Below, piece after piece: positions 7,917 to 10,603 of a stretch of DNA of 12,481 nucleotides. Under the pieces are notes generated by a model. The model was given only the letters and a program-made list of their open reading frames with translations, made no database searches and had not been told where the DNA came from. The DNA comes from a virus. Lineage: Duplodnaviria; Heunggongvirae; Uroviricota; Caudoviricetes. The stretch lies in IMG/VR virus record IMGVR_UViG_2526164665_000018; one strand, written 5' to 3'. How positions within the stretch are numbered: position 1 is the stretch's first letter; every line of letters begins with the position of its first letter. Both the position numbers and the translations under genes were made by a program.

Positions 7917-8101
7917 ACGCCACAATTCAAACGATACCAGAGCTTCTTATCCAGACACGAGGCAATCAGACCGAAGTGGCGAGGATGCTTTCCTGCGCAA
8001 GAGGAACAGTGCTCAAGTACAACCGAGACAGCAAAGGCGAGCGTCATGTAATAGTTAACGGCGTCCTGATGGTCAAACAGGGCAAGAGGGGAAGACGATG
8101 A
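7913..8101 (+). CDS. ninH: NinH
   Basis: 62-aa ORF ...TIPELLIQTRGNQTEVARMLSCARGTVLKYNRDSKGERHVIVNGVLMV... matches recalled lambda NinH (..TIPDMLVEAYGNQTEVARRLKCSRGTVRKY..). Confidence 0.8.
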   Translation: MNATIQTIPELLIQTRGNQTEVARMLSCARGTVLKYNRDSKGERHVIVNGVLMVKQGKRGRR

Positions 8102-8187
8102 GACTCGAAAGCGTAGCTAAATTTCATTCGCCAAAAAGCCCGATGATGAGCGACTCACTACTGGCCACAGTTTATTGGTTTTCGTAA
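8098..8187 (+). pseudogene. Q: Remnant of a lambda-type Q antiterminator gene (first 20 codons only)
   Basis: MRLESVAKFHSPKSPMMSDS (8098..8157) equals the recalled lambda Q N-terminus; the frame then diverges and stops at 8187. The ATG overlaps the ninH stop. Confidence 0.65.
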
Positions 8188-8229
8188 CTGAGTCATTTTA
8201 TTATTTTATTGCAACTTTTAATCTTTTAT

Positions 8230-8279
8230 AGTGCGAAATAAATGGAGCTGGCATTCATTTCGCACTTTATGTTTTTGTT
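8230..8279. terminator. Perfect 10-bp inverted repeat hairpin (AGTGCGAAAT / ATTTCGCACT, 17-nt loop) followed by a T-rich run on the + strand
   Basis: Read directly from the sequence. It sits between the Q stub and the 3' end of the minus-strand lpxR-like gene. The U-rich tail is on the + strand, so it would mainly stop rightward transcription. Confidence 0.4.
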
Positions 8280-8308
8280 GGACTTATGTTATTTTGATTG
8301 AATTCAAT

Positions 8309-9271
8309 TCAGTTAAAAAAGAAGGTGATTGCTCCATTTATAAATGAATAGTCATCCCCTGTCTTGAATTCTGATGTTACTTTATTAAATGCTAGTGTGA
8401 AGGCTACAGGTGCATACCCAATTGTTGCGCCAACTTGATATTCATCAACAGTTTTGTTTAGCGATACTGTTGTTTGTTTCGTCTGTATTGTTTTTCCTTC
8501 GAGAGTATAGTTGCGATTGACATCTCGTCTTTCCATACCTGCAAAAATCTTGTATTTGAATCCGCTTGTATCGGACATATGCATTAAACCACGGGGAGCC
8601 AGCAGACCAAAGCCATTATCCGAATTGAAGGTTTTATCATTACCAATGGCAATGGTTGCGCCATATGCTACATATTGAAATAAGTTTCCAGTAACAGCAG
8701 AAACTTCAGGGTATAATCCAACATTAGCACCTAAAATATCCATACTTGGTGTCATGGATAGCATCCCTTTTACAGTATAACCGTAGCGATTCTCTATTTG
8801 ATCATCCCATGCATGATATTTTTCTGCCCCAATAATCTCATGAGCTTTATTTTGTACTTTCTGACCGCCTGCGTCGGGGCCAACAACACCTATGTCAGTA
8901 CCTAATCGATAGCGAATCCAGTCATTCGCAAGGGAGTTCCATTCAATACCAGTGTGAGTGTATGCACTAAAAGCTCTGTCTCCAGTTACAGCTGTGTTGT
9001 GTCTTTTATTACTGCCTGATGGAGAGTAAATATCTTGCGCAATATGGAGAGATAATTGGCTCGAGTCTGAGATATCGTGGCTATATCCCAGAAATAAGCC
9101 TTGTGAGTAATCATCTCTGTTTTCATGTTTATTGCCATAAATATCATTAAGTATTGGTTGAAACTTCCCTGCATCATCATTTGCTAATGATAATGCAAGG
9201 CTGTTCGCGATAGCTGAACACGTGGTAAATGACAGAGCAATAAAGACGCCAGCGATGACACTTTTTTTCAT
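8309..9271 (-). CDS. lpxR: Outer-membrane lipid A 3'-O-deacylase, LpxR-like; prophage moron
   Basis: 320-aa ORF with an N-terminal signal peptide (MKKSVIAGVFIALSFTTCSAIA) and C-terminal aromatic residues (...ITFFFN). Matches my recollection of the LpxR family, which has a known prophage-encoded O157 orthologue. Opposite strand and lower GC than the phage backbone. Confidence 0.7.
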   Translation of the reverse strand: MKKSVIAGVFIALSFTTCSAIANSLALSLANDDAGKFQPILNDIYGNKHENRDDYSQGLFLGYSHDISDSSQLSLHIAQDIYSPSGSNKRHNTAVTGDRAFSAYTHTGIEWNSLANDWIRYRLGTDIGVVGPDAGGQKVQNKAHEIIGAEKYHAWDDQIENRYGYTVKGMLSMTPSMDILGANVGLYPEVSAVTGNLFQYVAYGATIAIGNDKTFNSDNGFGLLAPRGLMHMSDTSGFKYKIFAGMERRDVNRNYTLEGKTIQTKQTTVSLNKTVDEYQVGATIGYAPVAFTLAFNKVTSEFKTGDDYSFINGAITFFFN

Positions 9272-9660
9272 ATGTTATTGTCTTCCTTTTTTTGAATGGT
9301 GCGCGTATTTTACATACATGAGTTTGTAATACAAGGTGCGTAATCAATATGATGTTTTATAATTGCGTGAGACAATTGATTTATTCGTTTTTTATTGCGG
9401 TTTTTATTATCTTTTAATGTAACGGTGTTTTTATTAAGTGTGTTTGCGTGGTGTTTTATGTTTTTTATAATTTTTATTTTATTAAATTTAAAAGCATTAG
9501 TAATGGCTATTCTATATAGCAATATAAGAACTGTTACAAAAAAAGGGGGGGCAATTACAGGTAGTTATGGATGATGAGTGAAACAGATATTGGAGAACCG
9601 GGGAATGAATGATGTCTGAGTCTTATATATCAGAACTCCTTCGCTGTCGCTGGGGGCTCC
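9272..9660. promoter_or_regulatory. AT-rich divergent intergenic region upstream of lpxR-like and the Q-like gene; contains an A7G7 homopolymer pair
   Basis: Very AT-rich with repeated GTTTTTATT-like motifs (9390..9480), typical of curved, H-NS-silenced DNA. A7 at 9538..9544 abuts G7 at 9545..9551. No specific -35/-10 assigned. Confidence 0.4.
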
Positions 9661-9661
9661 T

Positions 9662-10435
9662 GTGCTTATGTCGTTTCCCCGATTCGGTTTTGAACGATTA
9701 CCGAATGTTGAAGAATTATGCCAAAATATAGAAAGGATTTACTGCATGAATACCCAATATTTACAGTATGTTCGTGAGCAACTTATGGCAGCTACTGCTG
9801 ACTTGAACGGAGCAACGAAAGGCCAGCTCGAAGCCTGGCAGGAGCATGCACAATTTGATACTGGTACATACAAACGAAAGAAGCCGCGCATTCTGGATGT
9901 GGTAACTGGCAAGATGATTACGCTGGATAATACGCCGACTTCCGGTAAGCAGTCGTACGCAAAAGGTTCATCCATTGCTTTGGTCAGCCCGGTTGAATTC
10001 TCAACCTCTTCATGGCGCCGCGCGGTTTTGTCTCTCGATGAACATCAGAAAGCATGGTTGCTTTGGTGTTACAGCGAAAGCGTTCGATGGGGGCATCAGG
10101 TCACCATAACGCAATGGGCATGGAGCGAGTTTAAAGATTTGTTAAGTAACAGAAAAATTGCAGGTAAGACACTGGATCGCCTGAAGACGTTAATCTGGCT
10201 GGCTGCACAGGATGTGAAGAGCGAACTTGCAGGGCGTGAGGCCTATGAATACCAGACACTGGCATCATTGGTGGGAGTGACAACAAAAAACTGGTCCGAG
10301 ACATTTACTGAACGCTGGGTTGCAATGAAGCACATTTTTCTACAGCTTGATAGTGATGCTTTATTGCTTGTGACGAGAACACGTTCAAAACAAAAGGCAG
10401 CATTTTTACAGCAAAATATTGCAAAACTGGATTAA
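9662..10435 (+). CDS. Putative late-gene antiterminator Q-like protein (non-lambda type); start uncertain (GTG 9662, ATG 9668 or ATG 9746)
   Basis: Occupies the Q position after the nin genes. Its 3' end overlaps a near-consensus sigma70 promoter that is followed within ~50 nt by an intrinsic terminator, the pR'/tR' arrangement of lambdoid phages. No zinc-finger motif, so not lambda-Q type. Family assignment not verified. Confidence 0.55.
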   Translation: MLMSFPRFGFERLPNVEELCQNIERIYCMNTQYLQYVREQLMAATADLNGATKGQLEAWQEHAQFDTGTYKRKKPRILDVVTGKMITLDNTPTSGKQSYAKGSSIALVSPVEFSTSSWRRAVLSLDEHQKAWLLWCYSESVRWGHQVTITQWAWSEFKDLLSNRKIAGKTLDRLKTLIWLAAQDVKSELAGREAYEYQTLASLVGVTTKNWSETFTERWVAMKHIFLQLDSDALLLVTRTRSKQKAAFLQQNIAKLD

Positions 10436-10447
10436 AAGCCATATACT
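10419..10447 (+). promoter_or_regulatory. pR'-like late promoter: -35 TTGCAA (10419..10424), 17-bp spacer, -10 TATACT (10442..10447)
   Basis: Hexamers and spacing read directly from the sequence. The promoter overlaps the stop of the Q-like gene (10433..10435); predicted start near 10454. Confidence 0.5.
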
Positions 10448-10480
10448 TCATGCAAATTTGGTATGTTGTAAAAAATGTAT

Positions 10481-10506
10481 AAACCCGCTGCCGAGTGGGT
10501 TTTTTT
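10481..10506 (+). terminator. tR'-like intrinsic terminator (hairpin aaacccgc-tgccga-gtgggttt, then a T7 run)
   Basis: GC-rich stem followed by a U tract ~50 nt downstream of the predicted late-promoter start, giving a short leader RNA analogous to lambda 6S RNA. Confidence 0.55.
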
Positions 10507-10603
10507 ATGCCCTGAGTTGTACTTGTACGGTAAACATGCTGGCTGCTATGTAATAGAGTTTTTTTAGCCTGTAACCTCTTGACGGCATTGAATTGCTTTT
10601 GTT

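Follow-up and report, generated by a model that had tools for sequence, protein, structure and literature searches.

Why should a lambda-type antitermination gene break off a few codons after its start, with a different antiterminator gene lying further downstream? The question is raised by a tailed-phage sequence, IMG/VR virus record IMGVR_UViG_2526164665_000018, of which we analysed the whole stretch of 12,481 nucleotides (nt), referred to here as the window. Between the nin genes and the late operon, the window holds the 5' end of a lambda-type Q gene, an lpxR gene on the minus strand, the small gene ylcG, and a Q82-family Q gene followed by a predicted late promoter (pR') and terminator (tR'). 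We propose, with high confidence, that this is an inherited lambdoid mosaic joint, as in phage 434, at which a block carrying lpxR and a Q82-type switch replaced most of a lambda-type Q, and that the switch, in what is a decayed lambda-like prophage of pathogenic E. coli, is now most likely a relic.

The lambda-type Q 5' remnant (plus strand, 8098-8187; the stub) is an open reading frame (ORF) of 29 codons that translates as MRLESVAKFHSPKSPMMSDSLLATVYWFS followed by the stop codon. Its ATG overlaps the stop codon of ninH (ATGA, 8098-8101). The ninH gene (plus strand, 7913-8101; Pfam Phage_NinH, E 2e-24) forms the left flank of the joint, with rusA (plus strand, 7554-7916) upstream of it. When aligned with lambda Q, the stub was identical at 61 of 61 nt and then at 11 of 15, with no similarity past about 8173, so that lambda Q homology spans positions 8098 to about 8173. 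In phages and E. coli genomes with an intact lambda-type Q gene, megablast alignments ended at 8165-8168, and the E value of about 1e-31 for 84 nt places the match far beyond chance. The first-pass annotation, which was made from the letters of the window, had read the first 20 codons of a lambda-type Q after ninH and had placed the end of the homology at about 8158. The 20 codons stand, exact over the 61 nt; position 8158 is where exact identity ends, and DNA similarity runs about 15 nt further right. The stub thus occupies the same place after the nin genes as lambda Q (PF03589), with 25 codons' worth of homology left. Since identity covers 20 codons and the frame ends at 29, its product does not qualify as a lambda-type Q of PF03589. 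RefSeq describes it as 'antitermination protein, incomplete, missing C-terminus', and the phage 434 record as 'Q N-terminal fragment'. Judged by these comparisons, the stub is a pseudogene remnant of a lambda-type Q, without its zinc-finger or DNA-binding body. Just right of the stub, at 8195-8202, the window and the O26 11368 prophage have an 8-nt tandem duplication (ATTTTATT) that is absent from phage 434.

The gene standing at the position of the late regulator (plus strand, 9746-10435) encodes a 229-residue late-gene antiterminator of the Q82 family. The protein matched PF06323 with an E value of 1.7e-91 and 306.3 bits against a cut-off of 25, over profile positions 1-216 of 220, and 203 of its 229 residues (89%) were identical to phage 82 Q in a gapless alignment of equal length. 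The gene starts at the ATG at 9746, with a ribosome-binding site AGAAAGGA at 9730-9737, and the homologues from phage 82 and from all seven other loci inspected also have 229 residues. A longer version starting at GTG 9662 (257 residues) was rejected because the annotated homologues are all 690 nt long. The first-pass annotation had described a non-zinc-finger Q-like protein of 257 residues and had suggested a search against Q families. The search returned the Q82 family (PF06323), and the single cysteine of the protein leaves no room for a zinc finger; the length, on the other hand, has to be corrected to 229. The order ylcG-Q-pR' is as in phage 82, PhiR47_2 and RothC, and in the O26 copy a holin and a lysozyme gene lie downstream. 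With a score above the family threshold, the expected gene position and the cognate pR' elements described below, we assign the product to the Q82 family proper, and antitermination activity is predicted for it. The family has been defined in the literature, with its mechanism given as an open question (PMC9388147). No chain in a 2026 copy of the PDB matched the protein by sequence, and a single-sequence AlphaFold2 model of it was unusable (mean predicted local distance difference test score 41.5).

The homology to phage 82 (X92588) extends leftwards beyond Q. It starts at about 9596 and runs through ylcG and Q, and its first part (plus strand, 9596-9608), where the window, phage 82 and PhiR47_2 have GGGGAATGAATGATG in common, is a remnant of an 82-type rusA comprising the last few codons; it marks the start of the 82-type module. 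The ylcG gene (plus strand, 9609-9731; NCBIfam NF033498, YlcG_phage_expr, E 7.4e-13) is a small gene found ahead of Q in 82-type phages, including phage 82 itself (orf45). It had been overlooked in the first pass, and is annotated in both 434 and O26.

Does the Q82-type gene come with its own site of action? A near-consensus promoter (TTGCAA-17-TATACT) overlapping the 3' end of Q and followed by an intrinsic terminator had been noted in the first pass, and we found both where they had been described. The predicted 82-type pR' (plus strand, 10419-10447) has its -35 element TTGCAA at 10419-10424, inside the last codons of Q, a 17-nt spacer, and its -10 element TATACT at 10442-10447. Consensus promoter scans performed at chance level (8 promoter-like sites against 8.4 expected), and the evidence for pR' is therefore comparative, namely its conservation across eight loci. 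In these eight Q82-family loci, from Escherichia, Enterobacter, Klebsiella and Salmonella, the -35 element TTGCAAAA, the -10 region and an AAA start are conserved in position, as is TGnTATnnT at +6 to +14. With +1 set at the first A of AAA, GCC occupies +15-17 in seven of the eight, and position +25, counted directly, is U in the PhiR47_2 and PPompW phages. The relatives were used to compare the published register of the 82 pR', the phage 82 record itself ending at the Q stop codon. In that register the sigma70-dependent pause of the 82 pR' has GCC at +15-17 and occurs at U+25 (PMC5001585). The Q-binding element is located between -35 and -10 (PMC4914094), and 82 Q requires both this element and the sigma70 pause at +25 (PMC4914094, PMC5001585).

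By analogy with phage 82, the Q-binding element would be expected in the spacer at 10425-10441. The initial transcribed region (plus strand, 10454-10478) begins at the first A of AAA, at 10454, and in both the window and 434 it has an extended -10-like pause element, TGgTATGTT, at +6 to +14 (10459-10467), GTA at +15-17, and U at +25 (10478), where a pause is predicted. Thus the window shares with the phage 82 promoter the -35 element, the AAA start, the extended -10-like element at +6 to +14 and U+25 (PMC5001585), and it differs from phage 82 in its -10 element (TATACT instead of TATATT), its pause hexamer (TATGTT instead of TATTTT) and its +15-17 triplet (GTA instead of GCC). By homology, then, the promoter at 10419-10447 is identified as an 82-type pR' with a pause element.

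The predicted intrinsic terminator tR' (plus strand, 10481-10509) consists of a 9-bp stem (10481-10502) with a 4-nt loop, followed by seven T's, and is annotated as a terminator in 434. Unlike in phage 82, it begins just 3 nt past the predicted pause site, and it would yield a transcript of about 55 nt. When the other Q82 loci were folded individually, hairpin-plus-U terminators of unrelated sequence were found in six of seven, that is, the structure is conserved. As these hairpins share no homology, RNAalifold on the seven terminators gave no information.

Short transcripts from the vicinity of pR' can act as small RNAs (sRNAs) in Shiga toxin (Stx) phages, which raises the question of whether 10419-10509 might instead be a stand-alone sRNA gene, or an attenuator of the downstream membrane-protein gene, not controlled by Q. 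The transcript of about 55 nt would suit such a role, as would the chance-level score of the promoter in consensus scans. However, the -35, -10, start and pause elements are conserved in position next to Q in eight loci of four genera and fit the published register of the 82 pR' (PMC5001585), and no Rfam family matched at 10419-10509. We therefore consider this alternative very unlikely, although an sRNA role could coexist with control by Q.

Several minor features of the promoter region may be recorded here. On the minus strand, 10409-10424 holds a perfect TTGC-N6-TTGC site of the CII type that overlaps the -35 element of pR' and is annotated in 434 as the -35 of paQ; no convincing -10 element was found downstream of it. 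PhiR47_2 and PPompW retain the TTGC repeats around another spacer; the Klebsiella and Enterobacter loci do not. A literature text search for the pR' sequence string returned unrelated matches only. At 10499 a 1-nt homopolymer difference from 434 and O26 11368 shortens the T-run of tR' from 8 to 7.

What did the locus look like before the exchange? Phage 2B8 (LR595859), of Alegriavirus, the genus of 434, carries at this site ninG-ninI followed by a complete Q and a pR', both of the lambda type, and it has no lpxR, ylcG or Q82-type gene. Past its pR', 2B8 is 96.5% identical to window positions 10482-12433 and 97.2% identical to 434, and its ninI flank is 96.9% identical to that of 434 (over positions 1-1129 of the 2B8 locus). 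Because its lambda-type Q is intact, with a pR' of that type, and the downstream DNA is the same, 2B8 represents the unreplaced state. On the other side, Q82-type loci stop being homologous at exactly 10468 (+15), and do so in several independent contexts. As Q82 homology reaches 10468 and 2B8 homology begins at 10482, the right boundary of the replacement falls between the pause element and the terminator stem. By sequence homology, which is the sole basis for this assignment, the DNA of tR' belongs to the downstream module. The Q82-type gene had been credited in the first pass with its own pR' and tR'; on our boundaries the promoter travelled with Q and the terminator DNA came with the downstream module. 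In 2B8, the segment homologous to the tR' of the window (1770-1840 of the 2B8 locus) lacks three G's.

These boundaries suggest the following course. An ancestor with a lambda-type Q would have exchanged about 670 bp of Q body plus pR', beginning near codon 25 of Q and ending shortly after the pause element of the late promoter, for a block of about 2.3 kb. The incoming block, from about 8174 to 10468/10481, would have comprised the lpxR moron with its hairpin, the end of an 82-type rusA, ylcG, the Q82-family Q and its cognate pR', including the Q-binding spacer and the sigma70-dependent pause element. In an intact phage such as 434, and by analogy with phage 82, early rightward transcription would cross lpxR in the antisense direction to make Q; Q would then bind the promoter spacer and load onto RNA polymerase paused near +25, and the Q-loaded polymerase would pass tR' (10481-10509) into the late operon. 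Because the exchange took Q along with its promoter, late control follows the same logic as before and differs in specificity alone. The displacement of the original Q by an antiterminator module plus a moron, as proposed in the first pass, is well supported by the unreplaced state of 2B8 and by the 89% identity to phage 82 Q. The accompanying expectation of altered late-gene control applies to the specificity and not to the logic, and the switch is probably idle in this prophage in any case.

The cargo of the block is lpxR, a lipid A 3'-O-deacylase gene on the minus strand (8309-9271; Pfam PF09982, E 4.5e-40). The first-pass annotation had reported an lpxR-like gene in AT-rich DNA, preceded by a hairpin after the stub, and every part of this description was confirmed by the Pfam LpxR match, the structural match given below, a GC content of 36%, and the hairpin itself at 8227-8269. 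Residues 24-319 of the product align with residues 2-296 of Salmonella LpxR (PDB 3FID) with an E value of 3.6e-153, most positions are identical, and N9, D10 and H122 are conserved. We take N9/D10 and H122 to be the catalytic positions of LpxR (Rutten et al. 2009). As a full-length homologue of this outer-membrane beta-barrel protein, within PF09982, the product is by its sequence a genuine LpxR with predicted deacylase activity, here phage-borne cargo; its amino acid sequence is 100% identical to that of phage 434 LpxR. For lpxR of enterohaemorrhagic E. coli (EHEC), PMC6393859 credits the deacylase activity to Ogawa et al. 2018, and the gene is a member of the Ler/Pch regulon (PMC6393859, PMC9263587).

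The GC fraction is 0.395 in lpxR and 0.358 over the block 8174-9595, compared with 0.496 over rusA-ninH. Upstream of lpxR, the region 9272-9595 (minus strand; 28% GC over 324 nt) is AT-rich and presumably holds the promoter and regulatory region of the gene, and the right end of the moron lies at about 9590-9600. The gene has the attributes of a phage moron, being absent in 2B8, of deviant GC content, on the opposite strand, and accompanied by an AT-rich upstream region and a flanking hairpin. This hairpin (8227-8269), an inverted repeat with 18-nt arms that are 89% complementary, lies 3' of lpxR, the gene being on the other strand. It folds at -16 kcal/mol on the plus strand, with a U-rich tail after the stem, and at -19.1 kcal/mol (z -7.8) on the minus strand, with no U tail; it may act to terminate early rightward transcription. 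The ends of the moron were searched for repeats of the transposition type, and only short ones at chance level turned up: there is a 12-nt pair, GATGATGAGCGA and GATGATGAGTGA, and about four such pairs are expected by chance in 1.9 kb. Two further 1-nt homopolymer differences from 434 and O26 11368 were seen in this part, one at 8314, which adds one codon to lpxR, and one at 9286.

When did the joint arise? Seen in a single window, it could be a recent, strain-specific recombination scar, as the wording of the first-pass annotation implies, and nothing beyond that appearance speaks for such an origin. The distribution of the joint refutes it as a local event. Over 8087-10700 the window shares 99.4% identity with phage 434 (OL657226; Feiss et al. 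2022, PMC9119081), which was isolated in the 1950s and whose record carries all four genes, labelled as Q N-terminal fragment, LpxR, YlcG-like protein and Q82-like activator, together with the terminator and the CII/paQ site. The junction is the same to the nucleotide in 434, in 50 IMG/VR contigs and in about 620 complete genomes that span several serotypes. More exactly, the moron and its junction with the stub were found in 618-620 of 5,426 complete E. coli genomes at an identity of at least 99%. A recent origin is thus extremely improbable; the replacement is an old event common to many genomes and not a local one. LpxR occurred in 434 and 434B only among 50,697 phage records, and an exact-match scan for the junction in one genome per species (GTDB) gave no match in any species-representative genome. 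Phage 434 resembles the window in the stub, LpxR, ylcG, the Q82-like gene, the terminator and the downstream genes, and differs from it in its left flank (ninG-ninI instead of rusA-ninH), while the window differs from 434 in the 8-nt duplication at 8195-8202 and in several 1-nt homopolymer positions.

The left flank in fact varies among carriers. In the IMG/VR loci it was ninH in 22 and ninI in 27; the listed O26/O103/O111-type genomes have ninH, and the listed O157/O55 genomes and 434 have ninI. The window and 434 converge at about 8087 and diverge immediately upstream of the stub ATG, which requires at least one crossover within the stub homology of about 87 bp. The right side varies as well, with some loci switching downstream modules at 10468 and others diverging only after about 10901. 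Two IMG/VR loci (L042 and L045) switch at the end of ylcG (about 9736) and have a different Q gene after stub-lpxR-ylcG, which by eye looks like a Q21/933W-type Q; the same crossover point has been noted for the laboratory variant 434B. Once assembled, the block would have moved between phages by homologous crossovers, on the left inside the 76-nt stub and on the right in ylcG or after the pause element. A more general version of this idea, which we put forward tentatively and hold to be possible rather than probable, is that three segments, the stub (76 nt), ylcG and the opening 15 nt of the late transcript, serve as fixed 'linker' homologies through which the lpxR cassette can be re-coupled to any nin region and to any of the Q types. 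The combinations observed include ninH or ninI on the left, and a Q82-type Q with three different downstream modules. If this were true, a virulence-associated gene would spread among co-resident prophages of E. coli positive for the enterocyte effacement locus (LEE), independently of the late switch.

It could also be asked whether the stub has been kept for a function of its own, either as a small peptide coupled translationally to ninH or as a 'linker' homology under selection. The preserved ATGA overlap with ninH would fit the former, and the latter could draw on the fact that the stub, within which a crossover must have occurred, is unchanged in both flank types. However, with an identity of at least 98% over the entire region in every carrier, conservation of the stub is uninformative; the peptide has no family match and none of the functional domains of lambda Q; and use as a crossover site requires no selection. 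A selected function for the 29 codons is accordingly quite unlikely, and a remnant of the replaced Q remains our preferred reading of the stub.

Is the switch still at work in this prophage? The window contains two identical insertion sequence (IS) elements of the IS3 family in inverted orientation (46-1259, plus strand; 4909-6122, minus strand), each with an ALIL frameshifting pseudoknot, which we take to be IS629/IS1203-like. Between the two lie a truncated cII, the genes for replication and part of the nin region, and the O26 11368 copy has one such element. The truncated cII lies beside the first element, and the CII C-terminus was recognised by eye in the ORF 1225-1569. The replication gene is present as two overlapping ORFs (1602-2159 and 2099-2473) and is annotated as frameshifted in the near-identical O26 11368 prophage. 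In the late operon, a 1-nt homopolymer deletion at 10807 splits the 247-residue membrane-protein gene (10619-11361) into two ORFs, and a 14-nt tandem duplication at 12131-12158 (GGCTTACGGTGAAG twice), common to O26 11368 and absent from 434, frameshifts a DUF1737/SASA-type esterase gene. The homopolymer differences at 10807, 8314, 9286 and 10499 could be real mutations or assembly errors.

With Q, ylcG, pR' and tR' intact and at least 99% identical to a viable phage, 434, one could suppose that the prophage of this strain is inducible and that its late genes are still run by the Q82-type switch. Against this stand the two IS3-family insertions, the frameshifted O gene and the two frameshifted late-operon genes. 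Moreover, the near-identical O26 prophage has a partial sieB right beside a partial cII, and N, cI, cro and pR are therefore missing. In O157 strain 180-PT54 an IS1203-family element interrupts the same Q82-type gene (5163-7166 of that locus), leaving lpxR and ylcG intact. We consider a working switch unlikely. Given a prophage in such decay, as opposed to the viable 434, the Q/pR' switch in the window is most likely an idle relic, and lpxR, which is activated by Ler/Pch and presumably has its own promoter, is likely the part kept by selection.

Five points weigh against the picture of a replaced and now idle 82-type switch. First, pausing may be weaker here than in phage 82, because GTA replaces GCC at +15-17 and a GCC to AAA change lowered the half-life of the 82 pause about 5-fold (PMC5001585). 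Second, the transcription start, the pause and antitermination are all predicted from homology. Third, the 13 nt at 10469-10481 fit neither module by homology. Fourth, the 2B8 counterpart of tR' forms no comparable hairpin (z 0.12). Fifth, the idle-relic part of the picture leans on the annotation of the near-identical O26 prophage.

The arrangement itself is already known, being annotated in phage 434 and in RefSeq genomes; the regulation of lpxR has been studied before, and the whole fits textbook lambdoid mosaicism. New here are only the exact boundaries, a relative in the unreplaced state (2B8) and evidence that crossovers took place within the stub. The locus provides a clean case of lambdoid modular exchange, in which a late switch and its cis elements were swapped as a unit and a host-interaction gene was carried along. 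In pathogens with several prophages, the specificity of Q determines which co-resident prophages cross-activate each other's late operons. The linkage of lpxR to this cassette accounts for its presence in about 11% of complete E. coli genomes.

Further downstream, 11616-11820 (plus strand) matched the STnc100 family of sRNAs below its gathering threshold (41.4 bits, threshold 47, E 2.8e-6), and the matching stretch closes with a strong terminator immediately ahead of the esterase gene. According to a 2026 preprint, the PasD sRNAs are structural relatives of STnc100 found within 10 kb of LpxR and Q genes (bioRxiv 10.64898/2026.05.13.724894), and the match is therefore probably a PasD-type sRNA.

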